64,000 bases of DNA. Origin: Elusimicrobiaceae bacterium. GTDB lineage: Bacteria; Elusimicrobiota; Elusimicrobia; Elusimicrobiales; Elusimicrobiaceae. Location: contig JAFYXM010000003.1 of the NCBI GenBank assembly GCA_017546175.1, forward strand, positions 51,370 to 115,369, in the 5' to 3' direction. Shown piece by piece: positions 1 through 14,371 of this stretch. Below the pieces are notes generated by a model that worked only from the letters and a program-made list of their open reading frames with translations, did no database searches and was not told the DNA's origin. The translations under genes were made by a program, and so were the position numbers. Numbering within the stretch: the stretch's first letter is position 1; the number at the start of each line of letters is the position of its first letter.

Positions 1-2138
1 TAGGCACCGAAGAATAAGGTAAGATTTGGAACTCTTTGCCGGAGTTTATGACGTATGTGTTCCTATTAGGCACCGAAGAATAAGGTAAGATTTGTTATCT
101 TTTAAAGCTTTTATTTCAGTTTCTGTTCCTATTAGGCACCGAAGAATAAGGTAAGATTTGCGCACGTTCCACGGTTACGCTGATGGTGTAGTTCCTATTA
201 GGCACCGAAGAATAAGGTAAGATTTGTTTTTCATTATGATTCTGATAGCTGGGTGGGTTCCTATTAGGCACCGAAGAATAAGGTAAGATTTGTTACCGGT
301 TCATAATCTCCGGCTACAAGTTGTTCCTATTAGGCACCGAAGAATAAGGTAAGATTTGTTTTTTAAATTTTTGTGAGAAAGATTTTGAGTTCCTATTAGG
401 CACCGAAGAATAAGGTAAGATTTGAACCATTTTCCCGTCGTTATTAAATTTTGGGTTCCTATTAGGCACCGAAGAATAAGGTAAGATTTGGGATCAGAGA
501 AGCGGGAGCAATCCAAATCAGTTCCTATTAGGCACCGAAGAATAAGGTAAGATTTGCAAAAGCACCTGCGGTTTTGGTAGAATGTGTTCCTATTAGGCAC
601 CGAAGAATAAGGTAAGATTTGAATAAATATATTATTAGAAAGAGAAAAAAGGTTCCTATTAGGCACCGAAGAATAAGGTAAGATTTGGATACGTCAAAAA
701 GAGGCGTTGTGGCTGTTGTTCCTATTAGGCACCGAAGAATAAGGTAAGATTTGCTATTTTTTTTATTATACTATTAGTATAGAGTTCCTATTAGGCACCG
801 AAGAATAAGGTAAGATTTGTTTTTACGGTTAATGTTCGGGTTTATTTAGTTCCTATTAGGCACCGAAGAATAAGGTAAGATTTGCATAAAACTTGCCCAC
901 TAAAGGAGTGTGAAGTTCCTATTAGGCACCGAAGAATAAGGTAAGATTTGTTTGAGATTTTGACAGGAAAGCATAAAGGTGTTCCTATTAGGCACCGAAG
1001 AATAAGGTAAGATTTGTTAATAAGTGAAACAATGAACAAACAGAAAGTTCCTATTAGGCACCGAAGAATAAGGTAAGATTTGGATATTAAACAACGTATG
1101 GCAGCTACCGTAGTTCCTATTAGGCACCGAAGAATAAGGTAAGATTTGGCTTTAGGTTCGGGCGTTTTACGCGGTGAAGTTCCTATTAGGCACCGAAGAA
1201 TAAGGTAAGATTTGCTAAACGCTTTTTGTTTAATTCTGTGCCGAGTTCCTATTAGGCACCGAAGAATAAGGTAAGATTTGGCTTTCTCCGAAAGTCTATT
1301 TCTTAGTTAAGTTCCTATTAGGCACCGAAGAATAAGGTAAGATTTGGCTTTCTCCGAAAGTCTATTTCTTAGTTAAGTTCCTATTAGGCACCGAAGAATA
1401 AGGTAAGATTTGGGAAGACTTCGAAGACTATATGAGCCTGCAGTTCCTATTAGGCACCGAAGAATAAGGTAAGATTTGACTACCAAAAAATAGAAGTCTA
1501 TGCAAAGCGTTCCTATTAGGCACCGAAGAATAAGGTAAGATTTGCTAACAAAAGCACTTTGTCTTTTGCACCTAGTTCCTATTAGGCACCGAAGAATAAG
1601 GTAAGATTTGAAGAAATACGACCACACAGCTGTGCAGACGGTTCCTATTAGGCACCGAAGAATAAGGTAAGATTTGTAATTTTAAAATGATATGAAGATT
1701 TTCTTGGTTCCTATTAGGCACCGAAGAATAAGGTAAGATTTGCATTTTTTGCAAGTTACGCGCACTGCGGCCGTTCCTATTAGGCACCGAAGAATAAGGT
1801 AAGATTTGTTTAAAAAAATATCAAGTATTATTTTTGATGTTCCTATTAGGCACCGAAGAATAAGGTAAGATTTGACCGGAGAAGAAACTGACAATGAAGT
1901 TTTTGTTCCTATTAGGCACCGAAGAATAAGGTAAGATTTGCAACGAGCGTCTCCAAAGCTTCTTTTTGATGTTCCTATTAGGCACCGAAGAATAAGGTAA
2001 GATTTGTCGTCTTTATATAGTGTTGCCGGGGCGATTGTTCCTATTAGGCACCGAAGAATAAGGTAAGATTTGGACTACACCGTCTAAAGCATATGCGGTA
2101 CGGTTCCTATTAGGCACCGAAGAATAAGGTAAGATTTG
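1..2138 (+). CRISPR. CRISPR array: 32 full copies plus 1 edge-truncated copy of the 36-nt repeat GTTCCTATTAGGCACCGAAGAATAAGGTAAGATTTG; 32 spacers of 29-30 nt; array continues beyond window start
   Basis: Exact repeat found at 59,125,191,...,2037,2103 with 65-66 nt period; partial repeat at 1-28. All copies in the window are identical. The strand is inferred from the GTT... repeat start and from complementarity to the plus-strand tracrRNA anti-repeat. Confidence 0.98.
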
Positions 2139-2153
2139 TATAACTAAAAAATA

Positions 2154-2183
2154 TTGCGAAAATTTATACATTTTTACTATAAT
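2154..2183 (+). promoter_or_regulatory. sigma70-like promoter for tracrRNA (TTGCGA - 18 nt - TATAAT)
   Basis: TTGCGA at 2154-2159 and TATAAT at 2178-2183, placing a start site about 7 nt downstream, just before the anti-repeat. Confidence 0.6.
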
Positions 2184-2189
2184 ATTTAC

Positions 2190-2276
2190 AGAAACCTTAT
2201 TCTTATTTGTGCCTCAACTTAGGTAACAAGGGCATTAAAGCCCGCAAAGGGGTTAGTCCCCACTTAAATTCGTTTT
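2190..2276 (+). ncRNA. tracrRNA: tracrRNA (anti-repeat followed by two GC hairpins and a U-tail)
   Basis: 2194-2228 ACCTTATTCTTATTTGTGCCTCAACTTAGGTAAC is imperfectly complementary to the repeat: 11 bp with GAAGAATAAGGT, 6 bp with AGGCAC, and 7 bp with GTTCCTA plus a bulge. Downstream hairpins are GGGC-ATTAAA-GCCC (2230-2243) and GGGG-TTAG-TCCCC (2249-2261), then CGTTTT. The position between cas2 and the array fits type II loci. The ends are approximate. Confidence 0.8.
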
Positions 2277-2619
2277 AAAAATCCTCAAAGAGTATGAGTT
2301 GATCATACTTTTTGGGGATTTTTTCTTGTCGTAAGGCAGGACCATAGAAGTTTTTTGTAAGACCATATTGTTTATCGGTCATCATCATAAATGCACTTTT
2401 TCCTTGAGGAGGAGTTTGCGGACCTAACTGCTTGATGAGGGCTTGTGCTTGATGCATGGTAGGTAAATTGCGCACATACACGGAATATTGAAGCATAGTA
2501 AACCCATGATGAAGCAATAATTTTCTAAATCCTGCGTACCGCTTTCGCTGGACTTTGGTGTGCGTTGGTAAGTCAAAAACAGCTACTACCCACATAATAC
2601 GCCAACTATTGGGTTTCAT
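2275..2619 (-). CDS. cas2: CRISPR-associated endoribonuclease Cas2
   Basis: 114 aa with a Cas2-like ferredoxin-fold sequence (WVVAVFDLPT...YAGFRKLL...LQYSVYVR). Overlaps the cas1 stop by 14 nt. Confidence 0.9.
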   Translation of the reverse strand: MKPNSWRIMWVVAVFDLPTHTKVQRKRYAGFRKLLLHHGFTMLQYSVYVRNLPTMHQAQALIKQLGPQTPPQGKSAFMMMTDKQYGLTKNFYGPALRQEKIPKKYDQLILFEDF

Positions 2620-3589
2620 CTATAAATTGTCGTGTTTGCCACGATGTAACCGTAGAAGATTTTCCCGGACGAGAAGGAATATTAGGAAGTAGAAGTTTGC
2701 GACGGGGATCTTCCAAGCTGATACAATAACTGTTAATTGCCCAATCAATGCCATGAAATAAGCGGTATTCTTTTCCGGCAATTGAAACTGTACTAGACAA
2801 AAGAGAAGATAATATTTTCTTTTTTATATCTCTATCAAACGCGGAAATATTTTTTTGATAGAAGATATTCCAAACAATTTTATCTACTAAAAATCTAAAA
2901 GGCTCTATAAAATCATCAGCTAAATTAAAAGGATTGTCCTTACGGTGATGTCCGACCCCAAAATTTAAGCAAAGGCCCGCCCCCACCAAACCGCGTGCTA
3001 TAATAGCCCGAAGAACAGCATATCCGTAATTTAAAGATACATTAACGGGGTCCGTGGCGCCCTGTTTATCTCTAAAATCTACATTGGCATTTAAACTCTT
3101 AAAAAATGCTGGCCAATATATATGCGCGGCCTGTGCTTCTCTGCCGCTTTTATCGCCTAATTCAACATGACCAGCAATGATTTTTAAACGAGAGGACAAA
3201 TCGTCATCAAAAAAAGCCGCTGAGCAAGATTGACCATAAATTTTGGACTCTATTAGCTGTGACCACCATTTTTCAAATGTTTCTGTACTCAAGTACTTAG
3301 ACTGTAAAAAAGGTCGTTTAGCGCCGTCTATATTGGCTGCAACGGGCAAAGAAATGGCACAAGGCATATATTTCTCCCCCGCTGATACAATAACAGCACC
3401 GTTTTTGGATAACTCCTGATAAACAGCCAGTGACATAGTGATGCATGGATGAGATAAAATCAGCACAGCGATATCACAAGCGGCAATTAAATGCGTTTCC
3501 CCTGCTTGGGTAAATGTTATTTTAAGCCGCCCCGTATCAATAGAAATTTTAGCTTCTCTGTCTATACTGATTAAATGCTGTATGCTCAT
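2606..3589 (-). CDS. cas1: CRISPR-associated endonuclease Cas1 (type II)
   Basis: 327 aa with Cas1 motifs (LNYGYAVLRAIIARGLV, HHRKDNPFNLADDFIEPFR). 4-nt overlap with cas9. Confidence 0.93.
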   Translation of the reverse strand: MSIQHLISIDREAKISIDTGRLKITFTQAGETHLIAACDIAVLILSHPCITMSLAVYQELSKNGAVIVSAGEKYMPCAISLPVAANIDGAKRPFLQSKYLSTETFEKWWSQLIESKIYGQSCSAAFFDDDLSSRLKIIAGHVELGDKSGREAQAAHIYWPAFFKSLNANVDFRDKQGATDPVNVSLNYGYAVLRAIIARGLVGAGLCLNFGVGHHRKDNPFNLADDFIEPFRFLVDKIVWNIFYQKNISAFDRDIKKKILSSLLSSTVSIAGKEYRLFHGIDWAINSYCISLEDPRRKLLLPNIPSRPGKSSTVTSWQTRQFIDETQ

Positions 3590-6500
3590 CCGTTTTTAAG
3601 TTTTGCAATATCTTCACGAGAAGAAACCAAAGAGTAATTTTTGAGATTTGAAATATATGCCACGTTTCCAGTCGTTTCAGTAACCAGTCTTATTCCAACA
3701 CCGAATAAGGCAGCAAATTTCTGTACTTTATAGAACTGCTTATTTTCTTTATCAAACAAAATATCTCCTGCAAAGATTCTTACTATCCCTTCCGGAATTT
3801 GTTTTTGTTGTTGATATTTCCATAAGGGAATTAAGGCTACGCGTTTACCCGTTTTGGCATCAAAATCCATACAGGCATATCCATAATTCTGATAGCCTTT
3901 GCAATGTTGATTTCCTGATTTATCTTTGGAAATAACTTTTTTATCAGAATTTTCATCAAATTCACGTACACCGCGCCCCACCAAATACATATATTTCACT
4001 TTTTTTACTTTGTTTCCACGATAATAAATACCATCTAACGGATCATCTTTCTTTCCGCATAAAGCCTCTTCCTGCGTCATTCCTTTGGCTATACGCTCTT
4101 TAAATTGACGTAGAATTTCTTCTTTAATCGTATCTGTGAAAAGAAGTTTTTCTAAATTTTCAATTGTTTTCTTCTCATTGGCTTTCAAAAAACTACTCAG
4201 TTCTGCTCTTTTTACAAAACGTTCCACCCCCGTTTTATCTTTCACGACATTATAAGCCGTTTCATCAAAGAAAGCTCCGCTGGGATAGTGATCCGGTTTG
4301 TGCCATACCACATAATTTGTCAGGCGTTTTTGTACTTCTTGGCAAATTTTGGCATACTGAGGGATATTATCCAACATAAAGCCGGCAATATCCTTTTCGT
4401 GAATATGATTTCCGTTATCGTCTATGTATTCTATTTTGTGCAAAGTACCAAAATCCCGATGATGTTTTTCGGCACGTTGTAATAAAGACAAGTTGCACAA
4501 CCCAATGACCGCCGCATCTACGGCATGATGCCTATGATCACATCTCTTATTAAACTTTAATAACGTTTTTTGCTCAGCGCAGAATTTAGCAAAAGCTTTT
4601 TTCTTATCCTTTTCCGTTACAGGTTCTTCCTCTAAAGAAGATGAAAATACCTCAAAATCTTCTTTCAGTTCTTTCAAGTTGTGATAAGACAAACTTTCAT
4701 TAGAAAAAAGTTCCTTCCATTTTTTAGAATCAATTGATTTATTATCTTTATCTAAAAGTTCTTTTCCCTCCTCCAAACGGATATTGGGCAAAACTTTGTC
4801 AAACTGCAAATGACTGCGCAAATAGGCGGTCAGTTCTCCAAAGGTCGGCGTCACTTTCGGACAAACATCTTTACTCCAAGCTAAAACTATATCGCTGATC
4901 CATGCCGTCTGTTGTTTTTGACGATTGTTAAAATCATCTTTTAATTCGGAAGGAATCATTAATAAATTCTTAATCTTACGCAAAATACGCGCCCCTTTTT
5001 GGGAAGGTTTCCATTTTCGTTCTCTTTGGCAAAAATAACCTTTTTTCTCTTTAGAGTATAAAAGCCATAAATGTTGGACAAAGTTAATCAGCGGACTGTG
5101 TTTTCCAAAGGAAAAATCTTGAGTTTCCCCCTTTTTCTTTTTTTCTTTTATTTCCTTGCTAAATTCTCTATAATCATCTATATCTTCTTTAAATATCCAC
5201 TCGTAAGGAAGGCGATTAGATTTATCTTTATTTTTATCCGTAAAAGCCAAAACTTTGTTTTCAAACACATTCGGACCGGAAATATCTCCACGTTGCGGGA
5301 TAATGTGGTCCACTTGGGTCTGATGTTCGTCAAATGCCTGCTCAAAACTTATTGGATTACCGCTATAAGGGCAAGTTTTCTCCTGTTCCAACCACAACAA
5401 ATATTTTTCAATATTACGCGGTGTTACCAGTTTTTTATTCTCTTTTAATTCTTTAATAGCTTTTTGGCGTTCTTCGGCTTGTATTTTATTTTGACTTTCT
5501 AAAAACCGACGGCGGCTGAGTGAATTTTTCATTTCACGGGTCAGTTCCACCACCATTTCACTCGGCTGTCCGTATCTGTTAATAAGATAAGTCAAACTCT
5601 TGCGAAATTCTGTCAAAGCACGCAACATAACAGGGTCATTGATAGCCTCTTGGGCCTTAATAGCTTCTACACTGCGTAATTTACCCGAAGGACGTGGGTT
5701 GTGGTCAGCAAATTCTTGGATGATATCCGCCTCTTCTTCCCCTTGCAAAATTCTTTCCGTAAGCATTGTTAAAGCTTTCACACCATAGGCAGCACGGCCA
5801 GAAGTAAATTCTAAATTTTCTAAGCAATCTTTTTCCTTTAAGCATAAAACAAAATCTGTTCCTTGCTTTCTTTCTTCTGGACTGGAAAAAATATTTTTAG
5901 TTAAGGCATTAAATCTCTCTGTGATATAACTATTTGTATTATCAGAAATATCAGTTAAAGTAGTGATGTTGGCAAAAAACTCTATTACTAACTCTTGTAC
6001 CTTGTCCGTTAAATTGGACCATTCATTTAAAAAACCGATCTTTTCAAAAGCATAAGTGGTAGTATTTCCTTTTATTCCTTCTTTAGCCCCGTTTCGGCGA
6101 TCTGCTGTAAATCTAGCCGTCTGCGGTAAATTTAGCAAAGAATAAATCTTTTTAAAAGGAAAGCATAAAGTTTCGCTGGAATAATCGCTAGTAGCAGTGC
6201 GGATATGTTCAAAAAGATTGGCTTTTTGTGCCAAAGTCAAAGGGTGGGTTTCGCTCTCTCCTTTTTCTGCCCAACGCAAGTTGGCAATTTCTTTTACCAT
6301 GCGGTAAAGTTGATAGGCATTTTGGGCACAAGAAGCACGTTTTTCTTGAGGGAAGATAGAACAATTACCCACCGTTTCCAACTCCCATTTAATGGGACGT
6401 TGATAAAACATAGCCGAATAAAAAGCATCATGCAAAGCAATTTCTTTTTGATTAGGGAAATCGGGAAACATATTCTCACCCCAAACCTTATATGAAGTAT

Positions 6501-7143
6501 TTAATTGAGGATGATGCTTGCTCTGCTGCGCCCAAATTTTTTCAAATTCTTTTTCAATGGCTGTTCGGTATACAAAAGTACCGTCTTCTTCAATTTTACG
6601 CCAAGGCTGCCCTTTATCTGCCTTTTGTTTTTGCTCCCACAAAAGCTGCCCCAATGTCTTATCTTCACCTAAAAGAGTGTTGGTTTGCTTAATTTTTTTA
6701 CCAATTTTCCCCTGCTCCTCTTTTGATAAAAAACCTTTGTATCCTCTATTTTTAACAATATGAGAAAATACTTTCATCAGTTGCGGCAAGGAAATCTTTT
6801 CCTGCACCGCTTTTGCCCGAAGAAAAATAACATCTTCTTTATCCTGCTCTAAATCTTGCTTGGTAATGCCTAGTTGTTCAGCCATGTAGGTTAACTTTCG
6901 TAAACGAGCGGCTTTACGTTCAATTTGTCTACGAATTAACCGAGCAGAACGGCGAGAGGTATTTAAGGTTTCCATCTTTTTGGGCTCCACCGGTTCCCCA
7001 AAAATATAACTGTCCAAATGTTCTAAAGAAAGTATATTTCCCTTCTCATCTGTCTTATATACGGCAACACCTAAAGAGGAGGTCCCTAAATCAAACCCAA
7101 AACGATAAAAATTATCATAAGAAGTTAAAATTTCCTGTTTCAT
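3586..7143 (-). CDS. cas9: Cas9 endonuclease, type II-C architecture (1185 aa)
   Basis: RuvC-I FDLGTSSLGVAV (Asp18), Arg-rich bridge helix RRSARLIRRQIERKAARLRKL, HNH motif QVDHIIPQ...N..L, and RuvC-III HHAVDAAVIG. AAGGAG RBS at 7150-7155. No csn2 or cas4 in the locus. Confidence 0.95.
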   Translation of the reverse strand: MKQEILTSYDNFYRFGFDLGTSSLGVAVYKTDEKGNILSLEHLDSYIFGEPVEPKKMETLNTSRRSARLIRRQIERKAARLRKLTYMAEQLGITKQDLEQDKEDVIFLRAKAVQEKISLPQLMKVFSHIVKNRGYKGFLSKEEQGKIGKKIKQTNTLLGEDKTLGQLLWEQKQKADKGQPWRKIEEDGTFVYRTAIEKEFEKIWAQQSKHHPQLNTSYKVWGENMFPDFPNQKEIALHDAFYSAMFYQRPIKWELETVGNCSIFPQEKRASCAQNAYQLYRMVKEIANLRWAEKGESETHPLTLAQKANLFEHIRTATSDYSSETLCFPFKKIYSLLNLPQTARFTADRRNGAKEGIKGNTTTYAFEKIGFLNEWSNLTDKVQELVIEFFANITTLTDISDNTNSYITERFNALTKNIFSSPEERKQGTDFVLCLKEKDCLENLEFTSGRAAYGVKALTMLTERILQGEEEADIIQEFADHNPRPSGKLRSVEAIKAQEAINDPVMLRALTEFRKSLTYLINRYGQPSEMVVELTREMKNSLSRRRFLESQNKIQAEERQKAIKELKENKKLVTPRNIEKYLLWLEQEKTCPYSGNPISFEQAFDEHQTQVDHIIPQRGDISGPNVFENKVLAFTDKNKDKSNRLPYEWIFKEDIDDYREFSKEIKEKKKKGETQDFSFGKHSPLINFVQHLWLLYSKEKKGYFCQRERKWKPSQKGARILRKIKNLLMIPSELKDDFNNRQKQQTAWISDIVLAWSKDVCPKVTPTFGELTAYLRSHLQFDKVLPNIRLEEGKELLDKDNKSIDSKKWKELFSNESLSYHNLKELKEDFEVFSSSLEEEPVTEKDKKKAFAKFCAEQKTLLKFNKRCDHRHHAVDAAVIGLCNLSLLQRAEKHHRDFGTLHKIEYIDDNGNHIHEKDIAGFMLDNIPQYAKICQEVQKRLTNYVVWHKPDHYPSGAFFDETAYNVVKDKTGVERFVKRAELSSFLKANEKKTIENLEKLLFTDTIKEEILRQFKERIAKGMTQEEALCGKKDDPLDGIYYRGNKVKKVKYMYLVGRGVREFDENSDKKVISKDKSGNQHCKGYQNYGYACMDFDAKTGKRVALIPLWKYQQQKQIPEGIVRIFAGDILFDKENKQFYKVQKFAALFGVGIRLVTETTGNVAYISNLKNYSLVSSREDIAKLKNG

Positions 7144-7308: not shown

Positions 7309-8235
7309 TTATATCTTTTTTTTCTTAGCTTGATAACTGGCCAATATTGTTTCTATTTGCTTGGATAGTTCCGTCGGTTCTTGCACCATAATATGCGGCA
7401 GCCACGCCAAAATGGTGGGCAAAATCTCTTCGTACTTACCTGTAAAACACTCCAAAACAAGACCGTCTTTGGCTGATTTTTTGACTACTTTTTGTTTTGG
7501 GAAGTACTCCTTCTTTTCAAAATAAGGGGCAACTTCGGGGTCTACAAGCAGTTCCACTCGTTTATCGCGCTTATCCTCAAACCATACGGAGGCACTTTCT
7601 TCCAAAATCTTTTCTATCTTTTTGGGCCGTTTGAAGGAAACACCCGTGGGCTTGAGTTCTTTAATTTTATCCAAGCGGAGTTTTAAAATCACATCATCTT
7701 TACCAAGGGCAAGCAAATACCAAAAACCGTCAAACCAAGCGATTTTAAGCGGAGAAATATCTCTGCCCGACAATTTGGACTTATCATACACAATCGTCAA
7801 TTTTTCCTGCTTTTTAATAGCTTTTTCTATCAGTTTACTGTGGGTATCGTCTAAAAAAGCCTGTCCTTTAGGGAGTTTAATGTAAAAGGGGTTTTCTTTA
7901 TCGTTCTGCAAAATGCGGTCCCTCAGGCTGACATAGGTTTCTTGGAAACTTCCCCCCAAAGTACCTGCAATACTGGACAAAAGGGCCAACATGGCGGCTT
8001 CTTTGGCGCTGAGTTGCAGTTTCTGCAAGGAATACCCTTCCACAAAAGCGTACTCCCCTTTACTGGGGTTAGCGATAGGGAAACCCGCACTTTCCAAAAT
8101 CTTTATATCGCGCTGAATGGTGCGCACATTTACCATGAGTTCATCGGCAATATCTGCCAAATACACTTCGCCTTTATCAAACTCGCCTAAAATATACATC
8201 AGACGACTGATTTTATTTAATGTATCCCCTAGCAT
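7309..8235 (-). CDS. HTH-WYL (YafY/PafC-like) transcriptional regulator
   Basis: N-terminal wHTH (ADIADELMVNVRTIQRDIKILESAGFPI), central WYL domain (LTIVYDKS...RDISPLKIAWFDGFWYLLALGKDD...LRLDKIKEL), and a C-terminal WCX-like extension. Confidence 0.85.
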   Translation of the reverse strand: MLGDTLNKISRLMYILGEFDKGEVYLADIADELMVNVRTIQRDIKILESAGFPIANPSKGEYAFVEGYSLQKLQLSAKEAAMLALLSSIAGTLGGSFQETYVSLRDRILQNDKENPFYIKLPKGQAFLDDTHSKLIEKAIKKQEKLTIVYDKSKLSGRDISPLKIAWFDGFWYLLALGKDDVILKLRLDKIKELKPTGVSFKRPKKIEKILEESASVWFEDKRDKRVELLVDPEVAPYFEKKEYFPKQKVVKKSAKDGLVLECFTGKYEEILPTILAWLPHIMVQEPTELSKQIETILASYQAKKKKI

Positions 8236-8269: not shown

Positions 8270-9469
8270 TTATTTCTCTTTCTTTGCTTTCTTTTGCCAA
8301 GGTTTGGGCTCGTTGGAGGCTTTTACAACACCTAACGGAGTCAGTTTGACCAAGATTTTCACCAAGTCTTTTTGGTTTTCCATTACCTCGTCAATATTCT
8401 TATACGCGCTGGGGGCTTCGTCTAACAGGCCTTGCTCGTTCATGCGGTGCACAATGCCTTGGCTGTTTAAGATTTCCTGCTCGTGGGCCAAATCTAAATC
8501 TTTCATGGCTCTGCTGCGCGACATGCACCGCCCTGCCCCATGGGAACAAGATTGCAAAGAACTCTCGTTTCCTAAGCCCTGCACAATGTAGGAGCTCGTT
8601 CCCTGAGAACCGGGGATAATGCCCGTCGTATTTTCGCGTGCCAAAGTGGCCCCTTTGCGGTGCACCCATACTTTGCGGTTGTAATGCTCTTCCGCCGCGG
8701 CGTAGTTGTGGTGGATATTAATTTCCTGTACAAACTCCGCTTGCGGAAATTCTTCCAAAAACACCTTTTTGATAGACGTGGCAATCATTTTGCGGTTTTC
8801 AAAGGCAAAATCCAAGCAGAGTTTCATTTCATTAATATAATCGCCTGCTTCTCGTGTACCGATAGGAAGAAAAGCCAAATCTTGCTTGGCGATTTCTTCT
8901 TGCTTAAACATAGTGCAGAGTTTAACGGCTTTGTCGTTGTAATACTCGGCTACCTGTTTGCCCAAGTTGCGGCTGCCGCTGTGAATCATAAACCAAATGT
9001 GCCCGTCACTGCCGCGCTGAATTTCTATAAAGTGGTTTCCCCCACCCAACGTGCCGATTTGCTTTTGGGCGGAGAAAAATTCCCTTTTACATACTTCCGT
9101 CTTATTCCAACGGGTCAAATCCTGAAAAAGCGGGTTTTCCTGCGCTTCTTTATGGTGAGTAAACCCTACCGGCACGCGGTCGTAGATTTTATCTACAATG
9201 GCCTGCACTTTATCGCGCGTAATATCCGTAAGGCTCGTCTGTACGGCCAACATACCGCACCCGATATCCACCCCTACCATGTTGGGAGAAATGGCATTAT
9301 CTAAGGCCACTACCCCGCCAATAGGCATACCATAACCGCAATGGGCATCGGGCATCAAGCACACATTTCCCACCAAACAAGGGTGCTTAGATAAGTTTTG
9401 CACCTGTTGCATAGCCGCAGGCTCTAAATTTTTACACCAAGATAAAATGTTTTCTGCTAATTGTTCCAT
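8270..9469 (-). CDS. rtcB: RNA-splicing ligase RtcB (3'-phosphate/5'-hydroxyl RNA ligase)
   Basis: 399 aa with all metal/GMP-His motifs present: MPDAHCGYG, GGGNHFIE, IHSGSRNLG, NIHHNYA, SCSHGAGR. Confidence 0.95.
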   Translation of the reverse strand: MEQLAENILSWCKNLEPAAMQQVQNLSKHPCLVGNVCLMPDAHCGYGMPIGGVVALDNAISPNMVGVDIGCGMLAVQTSLTDITRDKVQAIVDKIYDRVPVGFTHHKEAQENPLFQDLTRWNKTEVCKREFFSAQKQIGTLGGGNHFIEIQRGSDGHIWFMIHSGSRNLGKQVAEYYNDKAVKLCTMFKQEEIAKQDLAFLPIGTREAGDYINEMKLCLDFAFENRKMIATSIKKVFLEEFPQAEFVQEINIHHNYAAAEEHYNRKVWVHRKGATLARENTTGIIPGSQGTSSYIVQGLGNESSLQSCSHGAGRCMSRSRAMKDLDLAHEQEILNSQGIVHRMNEQGLLDEAPSAYKNIDEVMENQKDLVKILVKLTPLGVVKASNEPKPWQKKAKKEK

Positions 9470-9479
9470 AATTCATTCC

Positions 9480-9944
9480 TTATACACCTAGTATTTCTAT
9501 TTGGTCTCCATCTTTCATGACAAATTCTGTCCAAGCAAATATATCATCAAGCATACTATCTATTTCTTTATGATCGCTCCATACAGCATCAGGGTAATTG
9601 GTTAAACTATATGTATAATCATAATCGATTTCTTGCTTTACCTGTTGGACATAATCATACATATCCTTAAACGAATTAAAACGAACGAGTTTTCGCGCCT
9701 CATTGAGTAGTTTTAGCCAATCTTGTTTTTTTAATGCATAGCATTCATATATATCTAATCCGCTAAGATCTATTACTATTCCATAAGCAACTGCCAAAAA
9801 TAAGAAATCATCTAGATTGATATAAAGTTGATTTAATCTTCTATCATCCGAAGGGTAACAGTACAATACAATATAGTCGGTAGTATTTCTTTCTTGATTC
9901 AGCTTTTTACTTTTTGGTTTAAAAACTAGATTATTGTTCGTCAT
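9480..9944 (-). CDS. hypothetical protein (154 aa), first gene of the rtcB operon
   Basis: The ORF-track frame was trimmed to the ATG at 9944, which is preceded by AGGAAG. It lies 10 nt upstream of rtcB. I recognise no motif. Confidence 0.6.
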   Translation of the reverse strand: MTNNNLVFKPKSKKLNQERNTTDYIVLYCYPSDDRRLNQLYINLDDFLFLAVAYGIVIDLSGLDIYECYALKKQDWLKLLNEARKLVRFNSFKDMYDYVQQVKQEIDYDYTYSLTNYPDAVWSDHKEIDSMLDDIFAWTEFVMKDGDQIEILGV

Positions 9945-9970
9945 AAGACTTTTTCTTCCTAATCTATAGT

Positions 9971-9994
9971 AAAAACCAAGGGAAAGACTCCCTT
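9971..9994 (-). terminator. terminator-like hairpin immediately upstream of the hyp154 RBS (possible attenuator)
   Basis: On the minus strand: AAGGGA-GTCTT-TCCCTT followed by GGTTTTT. Sits in the leader of the rtcB operon. Confidence 0.35.
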
Positions 9995-10097
9995 TCCACC
10001 CTAGCACGCACTTAAGCGCTTCCTAGGCAGTGGAAAGGTGCATACTTAGAATCCTCTCCTAGGCAGGACTTCCACAATAGTCTTTCCATTGGCACAT

Positions 10098-10663: not shown

Positions 10664-11425
10664 ATGAAAGAGAAGATCATTAAAAAATTAGAAGAACTGG
10701 AAAAAGAGCACCATATCAAAATCTTTCACGCGGTGGAATCGGGAAGCCGTGCGTGGGGGTTCGCATCGCAAGACAGCGATTATGATGTCCGCTTTTTGTA
10801 TTATCACCGCCCCGAGTGGTATTTTTCGGTTTCAAAGCAAGCAGATAACCTTGTGCAAATGCAAGAAAACAATTTACTGGATTTTGCCGGCTGGGAACTG
10901 AAAAAAACTTTGCTTTTGCTTATCAAGGGGAATATGTCCTTATATGAGTGGATACATAGCCCTATTGTCTATAAACAAAGCAAAGAATTTGATGCTTTCC
11001 AAGCACTTGCCCAAGAGTTCTACAATCCCAAAGCATTAATGTTTTCATATGTAGGGCTAGCAGAAAACAACTGCAAAGCCTATGCCGACAGAGAAAAGCC
11101 AAAACTTAAAAAGTATTTGTACATTTTGCGCACTTTAGCGGCTTGCCACTGGATAGAACAACGGAAAACTCCTCCCCCCATAGAAATGGATAAACTGAAG
11201 GAAGTTTTCCGCCACGAACCGCTTATATGGGACTTCTTAAACAACTTGATTGAGGAGAAAAAGAAAGGGACAGAGCTGGGCGTTATAGATTCCCCTGTGC
11301 TTATTAACCGGTGGATAGAAGAACAACTATCCTATTATAAGAAGTTAGCCGACAGGTTGCCCGACTCGGTAAAAGATACGACTCTTTTATCAAACTTCTT
11401 TTATAAGACAGTCATGGAGAGATAA
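10664..11425 (+). CDS. Pol-beta superfamily nucleotidyltransferase, RlaP-like (RNA-ligase-associated NTase, COG3541-like)
   Basis: 253 aa with NTase motif ESGSRAWGFASQDSDYDVRFLY (GS...DxD) and a helical C-terminal region. Neighbours rtcB. No clear SD before the ATG. Confidence 0.7.
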   Translation: MKEKIIKKLEELEKEHHIKIFHAVESGSRAWGFASQDSDYDVRFLYYHRPEWYFSVSKQADNLVQMQENNLLDFAGWELKKTLLLLIKGNMSLYEWIHSPIVYKQSKEFDAFQALAQEFYNPKALMFSYVGLAENNCKAYADREKPKLKKYLYILRTLAACHWIEQRKTPPPIEMDKLKEVFRHEPLIWDFLNNLIEEKKKGTELGVIDSPVLINRWIEEQLSYYKKLADRLPDSVKDTTLLSNFFYKTVMER

Positions 11426-11426
11426 A

Positions 11427-11729
11427 ATGAAAACGATTTTATTTGATATAGACGGTACATTGGCAGACTGAAACGGACGGGAAAAGTTCTTAAAACAAGA
11501 AAAACCTGATTGGAAGAACTTTAACGCTAAAGAGGTAAAACAAGATATACTAAACTCCCTCAGAACCCAAGGAAAGGATATTCTTTTTACCATAGATGAC
11601 CGCCAAAGTGTAGTGGATATGTGGCGTGCTAATGGTATTACTTGTTTACAATGTAAAAAAGGAATTATTAGCTTTTATTTTTCGGTAAAATATACAATAA
11701 GCATAATAAAAACATCTATGAGGGTATAG
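11427..11729 (+). pseudogene. decayed HAD-family (T4 Pnk-type) polynucleotide 3'-phosphatase: in-frame TGA at codon 15 and apparent internal deletion
   Basis: MKTILFDIDGTLAD-TGA-NGREKFLKQEKPDWKNF...GKDILFTIDDRQSVVDMWRANGITCLQCKKG. HAD motif I (DxDGT) and motif IV (DD) plus the VVDMW..G..C.Q tail are recognisable. The roughly 60 aa that normally carry motifs II/III are missing. Confidence 0.6.
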
Positions 11730-11731
11730 TA

Positions 11732-12703
11732 ATGTCTTTATTCTTTCTTTTGGCTTTAATCGGAGGATGGTGTCTTATTTTTTGGATAGCCACCCTAATG
11801 GGCAGAAAAGATTTTGCAGTCAATCTTTTTCCGATATTTTTTTTCGTGGTAATAGCCTATTTGTGGGTAAATGCCAACAAGGATACTTATTGGTTCCGAG
11901 GTATTTTCGCAAAACCTGCCGGTAAGCCAAAAGATTTTGTACTACCCCCCAAAAAAACTATCTCTGACGAAACTACCTCCTATTACAGAAAAATAAAAGA
12001 GGCATTAAAATCAAAAAGCGATATTTGCTTTGAATACACCAATATGCAAGGCCAAACTGCCACAAGGCATGTAAGGCCCACGGAAATTTATTTTGCCGGA
12101 TACGGAAAAGTTTACATAAAGGGATTTGATTTAGATAAACAAGAGGAGCGTAATTTTAAGGTGGAAAAAATGAAAAATTTACAAATCCTTTCAAGTAGCC
12201 AAACAAAGAGTACGGATAAAAACTCCGAGTTTCTTTTAACATTAAAAACTTACTCAAAAACCATTTTTATCTTAATCGGCATACAGGCAAGCGGCAAGAG
12301 TTCTTTTGCCAATAGATTTCTGGGAAATTGCACCCACATCAGCCTAGACCAGTTAAACACAAGACGAAACGAAGAAACGGCCTTAAAAGTGGCTCTTCTG
12401 ATAATGAAAGAAAACTGTGTAATAGATAACACCAACCCCACTCGCCAAGAACGCCAAAAATACATTGATTTGGGGAAAAAAGCCGGTTATAAAATAGTGG
12501 GGCTCTATTTTAGCTCCGCAATTAACGAATGTATTAAACGCAACGACAAACGCTTCGGCAAGGCAAAAATACCGCTCAAAGGCCTGCTTGCCACCGCCAA
12601 ACGCTTGCAACAACCGTCTTTGCAGGAAGGGTTTGATGAACTATACTATGTAAAAATAGAAAACAAAGAATTTGTTATTTCCAAATGGGACGAAACACTA
12701 TGA
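11732..12703 (+). CDS. membrane-anchored WYL domain fused to a P-loop polynucleotide-kinase-like (AAA_33) domain
   Basis: Two N-terminal hydrophobic helices (LFFLLALIGGWCLIFWIATL, LFPIFFFVVIAYLWV). WYL-like module ICFEYTNMQGQTATRHVRPTEIYFAGYGKVYIKGFDLDKQEERNFKVEKMKNL. Kinase features: Walker A ILIGIQASGKSSF, then SLDQL, IDNTN and R-rich lid motifs. RBS GAGGG. Confidence 0.75.
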   Translation: MSLFFLLALIGGWCLIFWIATLMGRKDFAVNLFPIFFFVVIAYLWVNANKDTYWFRGIFAKPAGKPKDFVLPPKKTISDETTSYYRKIKEALKSKSDICFEYTNMQGQTATRHVRPTEIYFAGYGKVYIKGFDLDKQEERNFKVEKMKNLQILSSSQTKSTDKNSEFLLTLKTYSKTIFILIGIQASGKSSFANRFLGNCTHISLDQLNTRRNEETALKVALLIMKENCVIDNTNPTRQERQKYIDLGKKAGYKIVGLYFSSAINECIKRNDKRFGKAKIPLKGLLATAKRLQQPSLQEGFDELYYVKIENKEFVISKWDETL

Positions 12704-13455
12704 AATTTGATGAATTTGATAAAAAAATGAGAAAGTTTGAGGAATCGTTGGATCAGGTTATCCCTTCCACTTCCTTTATGGTGGCCCGCCTTGACGGTAA
12801 GGGTTTTACCAAATTAACCAAGAAAGATATGGTTTTGGAAAAACCCTTTGATATCCGATTCAGGGACGCCGTCATCAATACGATTAAATATCTCATGAAC
12901 GGATATTTCCAAATTGCATATGCATACAATGAAAGTGATGAAATTTCTCTTTTATTCAAATCCAATGCAGATAAATTCGGCCGAAAAGTACGCAAATATA
13001 ATTCTATTCTGGCAGCCGAAACCAGTGTGCATTTTTCCCAACAAATCGCACAAAACGCCATTTTTGATTGCCGCATGATTGCCTTGCCCGATATAGAAGC
13101 CGTACAAGATTATTTTGCGTGGCGGCAGACTGATTCCAACCGAAATTCCGTTCTGGCGCATTGTTATTATAAACTGGTAGCCGATGGAAAAACCCCGCAG
13201 GAGGCCGCCGCTTACTTACGCAATTTGCCTTTTCGCGATAAAGTACAGCTTTTGGCTCATTTTGGCATGGAATTAAACGATATTCCCAAGTGGCAACTAT
13301 ACGGAAGTGCCGTCTATTGGCAAGAAAATATCAAACAAGGGCTTAACCCTGCCACCCACACTTCCCAACAGACACTGCGCCATACGCTGACGGTAAATTA
13401 TGACTTACCCGTCGGGGAAGAGTATCGCCGTTTTATTACCCGACAAATTACTTAA
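12700..13455 (+). CDS. Thg1-like protein (TLP), tRNA 3'-5' nucleotidyltransferase
   Basis: MKFDEFDKKMRKFE..., ARLDGKGFTKLTK, EKPFDIRFRD, YNESDEISLLF, FGRKVRKYNSILAAETS. The start was chosen at the ATGA overlap with the upstream stop (12700-12703). Confidence 0.85.
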   Translation: MKFDEFDKKMRKFEESLDQVIPSTSFMVARLDGKGFTKLTKKDMVLEKPFDIRFRDAVINTIKYLMNGYFQIAYAYNESDEISLLFKSNADKFGRKVRKYNSILAAETSVHFSQQIAQNAIFDCRMIALPDIEAVQDYFAWRQTDSNRNSVLAHCYYKLVADGKTPQEAAAYLRNLPFRDKVQLLAHFGMELNDIPKWQLYGSAVYWQENIKQGLNPATHTSQQTLRHTLTVNYDLPVGEEYRRFITRQIT

Positions 13456-13465
13456 CAGGATAATT

Positions 13466-14371
13466 ATGACAAAAAAGAATGTAGAAAAAGAATCTTCCTT
13501 TGAAGGAAAAAAAGATGAGGCTTTAGGAGATCTTTGGGATTGGTTAAATATCAGACGAGAGGATTTGCCTCATTATATCAACTATATTGCAGAAAATGCT
13601 TTTTCTCTGACTTCTGCCAAAAAACCTTTGTTTCAAAATCCCTATAAGCTTTCACAAGTATATCCCCGTTGGCCGGTAGATATGCGCTTTTTATTAACCA
13701 CTACTCATGATCCTAAAAAAGAAACGCGCAATTTGAACTCTTTTTGTATTTTAATGAGAGGTTATCCTAATATTTTAAAAATTACTGAAGTTTTCCCATG
13801 GAAAAGCGGGGTAGAGGGATATGTTAGCGGATCGTTAAATGATGGGCCGTCGGTTGATTTTCTCGCCCCGTTATTTTATCGGGAAGAAGACAAATATCAT
13901 ATAAATATTTGGGTTACGGTCTATCTGAGTGCCATAGCCCTAAAAATGCAGCCAGCTTCGGAAGAAATATTCAATTTTTCCGATGGAGAGCTATATGAAA
14001 TAATGCTAAAAGATTTTTTGAAAGAAAATCCAAGCAAAACAAAAAAAGATTTTCCTCATATTAGGGTATCTACCAAAAATATGACTGCTTTTCTGCCTAC
14101 TGAAACAACCTCTCTCTACCAATACAGAGCAAAAATCTTGAGAGTATTACAGATGGATCCTTTTGAGGATATAGAAATGCACAGCCTATTAGTATTGCTG
14201 ACAGGAAAGTCTCCTAAAAACTCATTAACAATCAATTTGTATGTTAAGAAAAGTGACCTTAATGGATATACCCCCCAAAAAGGTGATTTTATAGAGGGAA
14301 TTTTATGGATGTTTGGCACAACCCACTTTATGACGGGTGCAGTTCCAACAAGCAATGATGTTGTAGAGTAA
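13466..14371 (+). CDS. hypothetical protein (301 aa), last gene of the plus-strand repair operon
   Basis: The ORF-track frame was trimmed to the ATG at 13466 (AGGATAA upstream), 10 nt after the TLP stop. No recognisable motif. Confidence 0.6.
   Translation: MTKKNVEKESSFEGKKDEALGDLWDWLNIRREDLPHYINYIAENAFSLTSAKKPLFQNPYKLSQVYPRWPVDMRFLLTTTHDPKKETRNLNSFCILMRGYPNILKITEVFPWKSGVEGYVSGSLNDGPSVDFLAPLFYREEDKYHINIWVTVYLSAIALKMQPASEEIFNFSDGELYEIMLKDFLKENPSKTKKDFPHIRVSTKNMTAFLPTETTSLYQYRAKILRVLQMDPFEDIEMHSLLVLLTGKSPKNSLTINLYVKKSDLNGYTPQKGDFIEGILWMFGTTHFMTGAVPTSNDVVE

Follow-up and report, generated by a model that had tools for sequence, protein, structure and literature searches.

In bacteria, a conserved operon pairs a polynucleotide kinase (PNK) with a Thg1-like protein, and the kinase was proposed to make the 5'-phosphate substrate for its partner (Anantharaman, Iyer and Aravind 2010, PMC2904730). 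Thg1-like 3'-5' polymerases (TLPs) activate a 5'-monophosphate with ATP and then repair 5'-truncated tRNAs by templated 3'-5' addition (PMC6471195; PMC4820378). WYL domains are themselves known from a range of fusions, which were catalogued in 2014 and include Cas3, a 3'-5' exoRNase, Mrr, HNH, a superfamily 1 (SF1) helicase, an AbiGII nucleotidyltransferase, BRCT, and TerB, with no kinase listed (Makarova et al., PMC4012209). The WYL domain of Pif1 has been studied biochemically and is an accessory module that binds single-stranded DNA (ssDNA) (10.1101/163188). In WYL transcription factors the pocket for ssDNA is made complete by both protomers' WCX domains, and residues S144, R164, R168, and R184 of CapW contact the ssDNA (PMC11662680). 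Here we analyzed a stretch of 64,000 nucleotides from an Elusimicrobiaceae bacterium (assembly GCA_017546175.1, contig JAFYXM010000003.1, positions 51,370 to 115,369; hereafter the window), in which a single gene joins a hydrophobic helical hairpin, a WYL domain, and a polynucleotide-kinase-type P-loop kinase, directly ahead of a TLP gene (Table 1). Homologous loci and proteins are referred to by our own labels (L and P numbers) where they have to be told apart.

This gene is a real fusion of transmembrane (TM), WYL, and kinase parts that is under selection, and not an artefact. A first-pass annotation, made from the letters of the sequence, had read a hydrophobic N-terminus, a WYL domain, and a P-loop kinase in it, and all three modules are present in 11732-12703 (+). 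The 323-aa product has an exact match in nr, MBR5608809.1, which carries the generic annotation 'WYL domain-containing protein [Elusimicrobiaceae bacterium]' only and points to an uncultured genome of this family from gut or rumen as the source. A Shine-Dalgarno sequence (GAGGG) lies 7-8 nt 5' of the ATG, at the right spacing for a ribosome-binding site. No alternative ATG, GTG, or TTG start occurs in codons 45-100, so an internal start bypassing the TM region was rejected and the WYL domain is translated only together with the hydrophobic N-terminus. Scans for promoters, terminators, and Rfam families around the gene gave nothing above chance. Fusion by frameshift, which the same annotation had named as a possible refutation, and an assembly artefact were rejected, since at least nine protein clusters at 90% identity, from independent assemblies, keep an intact frame and both the WYL domain and the kinase are under purifying selection. 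Comparing the window with locus L001, the ratio of nonsynonymous to synonymous substitution rates (omega) was 0.26 for the WYL domain, 0.20 for the kinase, 0.44 for the TM hairpin, and 0.6-1.0 for the two linkers.

Alleles of the gene are mosaic in their N-terminal part. The first ~85 codons (11732-11986) differ from L004 (8001-8260) at a nonsynonymous divergence (dN) of 0.85, beside a WYL domain and kinase that are nearly identical, which points to recombination within the gene. The L004 allele nevertheless retains an open frame (probability on shuffled sequence ~0.001) and two hydrophobic helices, and in each of several diverged alleles a stop-free frame of 84 codons has a probability of at most 0.005 on shuffled sequence. 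A diverged allele that keeps both frame and helices indicates a maintained gene. In L007 (471-730), the alternative one of these two N-terminal alleles precedes a 56%-identical WYL domain, which is followed by a stop codon.

By profile, alignment, and fold comparison, the C-terminal domain is of the polynucleotide-kinase type and lies nearer to polynucleotide kinases than to small-molecule kinases. Pfam AAA_33 (PF13671) matches at 45.7 bits (cutoff 27), the best NCBIfam matches are the kinase part of PNK-3'Pase (TIGR01663, 9e-13) and bacterial Pnkp (1e-6), and the best sequence match in the PDB is the kinase domain of mammalian PNKP (1.8e-7), in which VIDNTNP is identical. When aligned with PNKP, K189/S190, D206, and D232-N235 fall on the catalytic motifs, D206 being the Asp of 'HVNRD'. 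The T4-Pnk-like motifs read by the first-pass annotation are all present and conserved across homologues: in the Walker A motif (GIQASGKS, G183-S190) residues G183, G188, and K189 are invariant, as is D206, the presumed general base after strand 2; R211 is nearly invariant, and the IDNTN motif and the Arg-rich lid (R270/R274) are invariant or nearly so. In the full-length AlphaFold2 (AF2) model the domain has a predicted local distance difference test (pLDDT) score of 84-96. Foldseek ranks 1-17 are taken by mammalian PNKP, the RNA 5'-OH kinases of Mucorales tRNA splicing (9d8a/9drz; PMC11571804), and CthPnkp of Clostridium thermocellum, with E values from 6e-10 to 8e-7. A small-molecule kinase is disfavoured, since polynucleotide and RNA kinases occupy these 17 best matches; gluconate kinase comes at rank 20 (6e-6), and small-molecule kinases are found among ranks 19-30. 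The features shared with PNKP, T4 Pnkp, and CthPnkp are thus the kinase fold, the Walker A motif, the catalytic Asp, VIDNTNP, and the Arg lid, and the protein presumably has RNA 5'-kinase activity. A Pfam scan found no PNK3P or HAD phosphatase match inside the protein. Like the bifunctional PNKPs, relatives of the target locus (L001) have a PNKP-type HAD phosphatase, encoded directly upstream of the kinase. The phosphatase is, however, a separate gene, which in the window is a pseudogene; the target has no FHA or ligase-partner domain, and its partner is a 3'-5' polymerase instead of an ATP-dependent ligase.

The middle domain, which had been called WYL over residues 90-160, is supported as such by Pfam, AF2, and Foldseek alike. 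PF13280 matches residues 85-152 at 36.7 bits (cutoff 21.8), and the PADLOC WYL models match the protein at 7e-12. Using an alignment of the closest relatives, AF2 built a helix (residues 79-93) and, after it, a barrel of five strands, at pLDDT 95-98. Compared with the PDB by Foldseek, this model has WYL proteins without exception as its top 32 matches (PafBC, BrxR, CapW, DriD, and WYL1), with E values down to 3e-6. Matches to a profile of the target's WYL family include PafBC (5e-24), BrxR (1e-11), and the Pif1-WYL chains 8bns/8bnv (5e-11 to 1e-9). Through the BrxR alignment, the ssDNA-contacting S144/R164/R168/R184 of CapW correspond to T111/K126/K130/R140 of the target. K126 and K130 sit at the two Arg of the RWHVR motif, the Lys-for-Arg changes being conservative, and the family alignment shows almost no variation at R112 and R140. 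As far as these alignments can tell, the conserved basic residues at groove-lining positions are retained. In the Pfam scan of the target no helix-turn-helix (HTH) family was detected at E <= 0.1, with the hydrophobic hairpin in its place, and no WCX domain (PF25583) was matched; a linker of 22 residues leads from the WYL domain to the kinase.

These properties place the target beside several described WYL proteins without making it one of them. With DriD, PafBC, CapW, and BrxR it shares the WYL fold and the basic or hydroxyl residues at ssDNA-contact positions; it differs from them in lacking a winged HTH (wHTH) and a WCX domain, in having an enzymatic output in place of transcription, and in its predicted membrane anchor. 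Pif1-WYL of Thermotoga elfii (8bns/8bnv) resembles it in that a nucleic-acid enzyme is directly joined to a WYL domain that has neither HTH nor WCX, but that enzyme is a soluble helicase with a C-terminal WYL domain acting in a DNA context, whereas the target is a kinase with a predicted membrane anchor. WYL1 of Cas13d, a Foldseek match of the target WYL domain through 6oaw, is likewise a WYL protein and is reported to bind single-stranded RNA and to modulate an RNA enzyme post-transcriptionally (PMC5935466), but it is a separate soluble protein with a ribbon-helix-helix (RHH) domain and no kinase, which acts in trans on a CRISPR effector.

The N-terminus carries the two hydrophobic helices noted in the first-pass annotation. 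Kyte-Doolittle maxima over 19 residues reach 2.3 in both segments (residues ~1-24 and ~27-48) and do not exceed 1.2 anywhere past residue 60, and AF2 predicts a helical hairpin of 20 and 26 residues (H3-22 and H26-51) at pLDDT 81-91. The hairpin is kept in the diverged P0008 allele despite a very different sequence. Net positive charge is located after the second helix and the inter-helix loop of the P0008 allele is acidic, which fits an N-in/C-in hairpin with WYL domain and kinase in the cytoplasm. The target protein is therefore predicted, on hydropathy and modelling, to be an integral membrane protein with two TM helices and cytoplasmic WYL and kinase domains. The basic linker that follows (residues 51-78) is mosaic between alleles. 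We modelled the N-terminal module apart from the kinase, because WYL-only and kinase-only proteins, when aligned together, led to WYL proteins being placed on the kinase; in the full-length AF2 model, run separately, the WYL domain was poor because the alignment is shallow there, and confidence was low across the region between WYL domain and kinase (predicted template-modelling score, pTM, 0.51).

The kinase stop codon (12701-12703) overlaps the start of the TLP gene in an ATGA (12700-12703), and the translational coupling read from this overlap in the first pass was confirmed in the junction sequence. Relatives were collected by a scan with the kinase alignment, from which we retained the best 80 of more than 525 GTDB species-representative loci and the best 80 JGI metagenome loci (n = 160). 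In 73 of the 80 GTDB loci the next gene downstream of the kinase homologue is Thg1-like, and 67 of the 80 JGI loci hold a Thg1-like gene; the pairing thus recurs in 140 of the 160, and the kinase there stands alone at ~150 aa. The kinase-TLP pair is the stable core of the cassette. With the PNK-Thg1 family (PMC2904730) the target shares a kinase domain of 45-64% identity, the gene order, the coupling to a Thg1-like gene, and the predicted role. It differs in that family members are stand-alone proteins of ~146-200 aa, whereas the target adds 175 N-terminal residues that hold the TM hairpin, linker, and WYL domain. Both the pairing and the idea of 5'-phosphate supply were already published in 2010 and are not new; the suggestion that the kinase feeds 5'-phosphate ends to the Thg1-like enzyme, which the first-pass annotation also made, is reasonable.

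The fusion is confined to a narrow, close Elusimicrobiaceae lineage. A check for the same architecture elsewhere, as the first-pass annotation had proposed, showed that TM-WYL-kinase proteins recur in Elusimicrobiaceae metagenomes among relatives of at least 73% identity, and among 102 homologues in a database of 5.8 billion proteins they are limited to this group. When 1.84 billion cluster representatives were searched exhaustively by HMMER for the WYL region, no WYL domain joined to a kinase was recovered outside the query's own cluster, and whole-protein scans for close relatives returned nothing from GTDB genomes, IMG/VR, or JGI metagenomes. A WYL domain of the target type was present in none of the 160 comparison loci, whether in the kinase open reading frame (ORF) or nearby (positive controls matched at 1e-45). 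The nearest kinase homologues without the fusion are 64% identical and also belong to Elusimicrobiaceae.

The five best non-self WYL matches, among the first seven HMMER rows, are small proteins with one or more N-terminal TM segments, a charged linker, and a C-terminal WYL domain (P0103, P0104, P0105, P0106, and P0109). Further relatives comprise small TM-WYL proteins (P0116 and P0117), TM-HNH-WYL proteins (P0118, P0129, and P0140), and an HNH-WYL protein (P0114). The TM-HNH-WYL relatives are membrane-anchored putative nucleases with the same WYL type as the target. Since the closest WYL relatives (up to 56% identity) are small TM-WYL proteins that share its order of TM segment, charged linker, and WYL domain, the fusion probably arose when the kinase acquired a TM-WYL module that already existed. 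These proteins differ from the target in that they end after the WYL domain or have an HNH domain between TM and WYL, none of them has a kinase, and their contexts are defence-like or uninformative, not those of RNA repair. Two stand-alone TM-WYL genes adjoin an AIPR abortive-infection gene or a DUF4007/Sel1 cluster, which fits the general conflict-system flavour of WYL domains, and the other contexts are short or uninformative. P0103 lies in a locus homologous to L004 and begins like the P0008 allele, with which it shares the N-terminus, but the protein ends behind its WYL domain; its contig is 988 nt long, and a homology search for its downstream context returned only P0103 itself. Descent of the target WYL domain from the adjacent wHTH-WYL-WCX regulator, whose WYL domain is not closely related to it, was rejected (BLASTP E = 7.2). 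As a family, these small WYL proteins with a membrane anchor appear to be undescribed.

Within the Thg1-associated kinase family, further members are extended in different ways. P0014 (L093, 84-758) has one or more TM segments directly before the kinase, which is followed by a Thg1-like gene, and P0021 (L095, 60-959) has four TM helices and a kinase; neither has a WYL domain. Membrane anchoring has thus also arisen independently within the family and may be a recurrent theme. Three further kinases (P0022, P0024, and P0034) carry an N-terminal uncharacterised domain of ~220 aa with a conserved CxCGxxxCAGF motif, which may bind zinc and could be another accessory module. The new part of the target is its N-terminal TM-WYL extension, which as far as we checked the literature is unreported: no WYL-PNK fusion was found, a negative that does not cover the RNA-repair survey of Burroughs and Aravind (2016). 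The use of a WYL domain at the level of an enzyme, which the first-pass annotation overstated, is not without precedent, as fusions with Cas3, exoRNase, HNH, Pif1, and other enzymes are known.

Around the kinase-TLP core, the window holds further RNA-repair genes and a CRISPR-Cas locus (Table 1). The HAD pseudogene next to the kinase retains an intact DxDGT motif when compared with the intact 152-aa gene of L001 (7583-8041). Pfam HAD_PNKP matches the homologues in L001 and L002, the latter a fragment of 89 aa. Recoding of the in-frame TGA was rejected as a rescue of this gene, because TGA also ends the kinase gene itself and the remnant has a large deletion besides. The cassette varies among relatives: L001 has the intact HAD gene in another gene order, L002 has fragments of HAD and RlaP, and L004 retains the kinase and Thg1-like genes next to a MerR gene and lacks RtcB, RlaP, and the regulator. 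The wHTH-WYL-WCX regulator between cas9 and rtcB has the same arrangement in L001, L002, and L012; its targets could be the CRISPR-Cas genes or, alternatively, those of the RNA-repair cassette. A homologue of the 175-aa protein (27% identity, E 1e-12) lies two genes upstream of a kinase-Thg1 pair in a Lachnospiraceae genome (L017, 4736-5275), and from this placement the protein may be an accessory of repair cassettes. The 301-aa protein has 13 homologous metagenome clusters at 54-98% identity, and no gene was called in the ~700 nt after the Thg1-like gene of L002 and L004. One CRISPR spacer is apparently duplicated (units at 1228-1359).

Table 1. Features of the target gene and of the surrounding part of the window.
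Feature	Position	Strand	Basis or remark
TM hairpin + WYL + polynucleotide-kinase-type kinase gene	11732..12703	+	ORF, 323 aa; Pfam WYL and AAA_33 above cutoff
Two hydrophobic helices (residues ~2-22 and ~26-48), predicted N-in/C-in membrane hairpin	11735..11875	+	Kyte-Doolittle, AF2
Basic Pro/Lys-rich linker (residues 51-78), predicted disordered	11882..11965	+	pLDDT 54-61 (N-terminal-module model), 33-43 (full-length model); omega ~0.6
WYL domain: N-terminal helix (residues 79-93) and five-stranded SH3-like barrel (residues 97-153)	11966..12190	+	PF13280, AF2, Foldseek
Ser/Thr/Lys-rich WYL-kinase linker (residues 154-175)	12191..12256	+	pLDDT 62-73 (N-terminal-module model), 33-56 (full-length model); omega ~1
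Polynucleotide 5'-kinase-type P-loop domain (residues 176-323)	12257..12700	+	PF13671, TIGR01663, PNKP alignment, Foldseek
Thg1-like 3'-5' polymerase (TLP) gene	12700..13455	+	Pfam Thg1 100.6 bits, Thg1C 46.8 bits
PNKP-type HAD 3'-phosphatase pseudogene (MKTILFDIDGTLAD, in-frame TGA, ~56-aa deletion)	11426..11731	+	Frame translation against the intact L001 gene
RlaP (RNA-ligase-associated Pol-beta nucleotidyltransferase), first + strand cassette gene	10664..11425	+	PF10127 237.9 bits
Uncharacterised 175-aa protein, upstream of rtcB	9480..10007	-	No Pfam match
RtcB 3'-phosphate RNA ligase, divergent	8270..9469	-	PF01139 372.7 bits
wHTH-WYL-WCX regulator, between cas9 and rtcB	7309..8235	-	Pfam HTH_11, WYL, WCX; PADLOC WYL 5e-31
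Type II cas2, cas1, and cas9 (1185 aa)	2275-7143	-	
CRISPR array, at least 33 copies of the 36-nt repeat GTTCCTATTAGGCACCGAAGAATAAGGTAAGATTTG, 30-nt spacers	1-2200	-	
301-aa protein, 11 nt downstream of the Thg1-like gene	13466-14371	+	No Pfam match
SulP transporter, after the 301-aa protein		+	

Taken with the operon linkage, the domain identities lead us to favour, with a probability of about 0.6, a membrane-tethered RNA 5'-OH kinase that belongs to a PNK-TLP repair module and uses its WYL domain for capture or localisation. A stand-alone kinase of ~150 aa would have gained at its N-terminus a ready-made module of hairpin, disordered basic linker, and WYL domain, and the hairpin would put the WYL domain and the kinase at the cytoplasmic face of the membrane. 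There, the kinase domain would convert 5'-OH ends, for example those of tRNA cut by ribotoxins or RNases, into 5'-monophosphates. The translationally coupled TLP would then adenylylate the 5'-phosphate and rebuild lost 5' nucleotides by templated 3'-5' addition. The WYL domain would most likely bind single-stranded nucleic acid, such as RNA ends or fragments, and would act on its flexible tether as an accessory substrate-capture or localisation module, as in Pif1, and not as a rigid allosteric switch.

Several observations weigh against this proposal. The WYL domain is absent from all 160 comparison loci and the fusion was found in neither IMG/VR nor the JGI metagenomes, so PNK-TLP function in general can do without it. 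The locus is variable and in decay, as seen in the HAD pseudogene, the fragmentary RlaP of L002, and the losses in L004. The predicted topology is grounded in hydropathy, charge distribution, and AF2 only, and since the target has no WCX domain, the binding mode and affinity of its WYL domain are uncertain. Finally, a 5'-kinase would destroy the 5'-OH ends needed by the neighbouring RtcB, an apparent conflict in the division of labour within the cassette.

The last point would be eased, by our own reasoning, if the kinase were gated by a ligand, the model put forward in the first-pass annotation, in which RNA or DNA fragments bound to the WYL domain switch the kinase on or off, so that 5'-phosphorylation and hence TLP repair occurs only upon damage. 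We consider this unlikely, although it has precedent in DriD, PafBC, and CapW/BrxR, whose WYL domains pass on ssDNA binding allosterically; the putative ligand-contact residues are kept in the target, and a WYL regulator is already in the neighbourhood. Known WYL allostery runs through linker helices and the WCX dimer (PMC11662680), however, and this apparatus is absent from the target. The ~22-residue linker between WYL domain and kinase is of low confidence and evolves at omega ~1, AF2 confidence is low across the region between the two domains (pTM 0.51), and Pif1, the only WYL-enzyme fusion studied biochemically, uses its WYL domain as an accessory binding module (10.1101/163188). It is because the linkers are poorly constrained, the WCX and linker-helix apparatus is missing, and AF2 confidence is low between the two domains that recruitment is favoured over gating.

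The narrow distribution and the mosaic, decaying locus, with its HAD pseudogene, fragments of RlaP, and first 85 codons exchanged between alleles, could also be read as an evolutionary accident, in which a recent deletion or recombination joined a neighbouring TM-WYL gene in frame to a working kinase and left the module idle or on its way to being lost. The stop after the WYL domain in the related contig L007, and the nearest kinase homologues (64% identity), which lack the extension, are in keeping with such an event. We regard it as quite improbable, since the omega of the WYL domain (0.26) is comparable to that of the kinase, the hydrophobic hairpin is kept across an allele at dN 0.85, the reading frame is intact in every variant, and independent TM-anchored kinases exist in the same family.

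It is more doubtful still that the WYL domain senses a second messenger, binding cyclic di-GMP or another cyclic or linear oligonucleotide and so coupling the activity or localisation of the kinase to signalling. The sensing of modified nucleotides was the role originally suggested for WYL domains (PMC4012209), perception of cyclic di-GMP has been reported for a WYL transcription factor (PMC11880434), and the stand-alone TM-WYL relatives next to AIPR and DUF4007/Sel1 genes are in defence-like contexts. Most structurally characterised WYL ligands are, however, single-stranded nucleic acids; a survey of ORFs and Pfam matches found no cyclase or other messenger-generating gene in the cassette, and no sequence feature specifically favours a small ligand. 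A different substrate at the membrane, either the 5'-OH ends of DNA or something other than a nucleic acid, with the Thg1 linkage incidental in this lineage, is highly improbable. In its favour, mammalian PNKP, the nearest relative with a solved structure, phosphorylates DNA, the WYL domains characterised so far bind mainly ssDNA, and the AAA_33 superfamily contains small-molecule kinases. Against it, TLP coupling is conserved in 140 of the 160 related loci, two RNA enzymes (RtcB and RlaP) are in the cassette, the E values of polynucleotide kinases are better than those of gluconate kinase and PFK2 by some four orders of magnitude, and two catalytic residues that are typical of polynucleotide kinases, the Asp and the Arg, are invariant.

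A wider and tentative idea, which we would not expect to hold, is that the TM hairpin and WYL domain together form a portable membrane sensor of single-stranded nucleic acid that is put on varied effectors (an RNA 5'-kinase, an HNH nuclease, or none) and that here would both confine the healing of 5' ends to the membrane's inner face and activate it there. If so, repair could be placed at the site that imported ribotoxins or incoming nucleic acids reach first, and the kinase could be kept off the 5'-OH ends reserved for cytosolic ligation by RtcB. RNA repair would then be spatially organised, and the WYL domain would be a direct, non-transcriptional switch on a repair enzyme. The impact of the finding is limited, because the fusion is young and confined to one uncultured Elusimicrobiaceae lineage with a decaying locus, and because the core kinase-Thg1 logic is already published. 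With this protein, a P-loop kinase joins the list of enzymes directly fused to WYL domains. Thg1-like polymerases and the kinases that partner them are widespread in bacteria, and the fused variant offers a handle on where, and on which RNA ends, their repair occurs.

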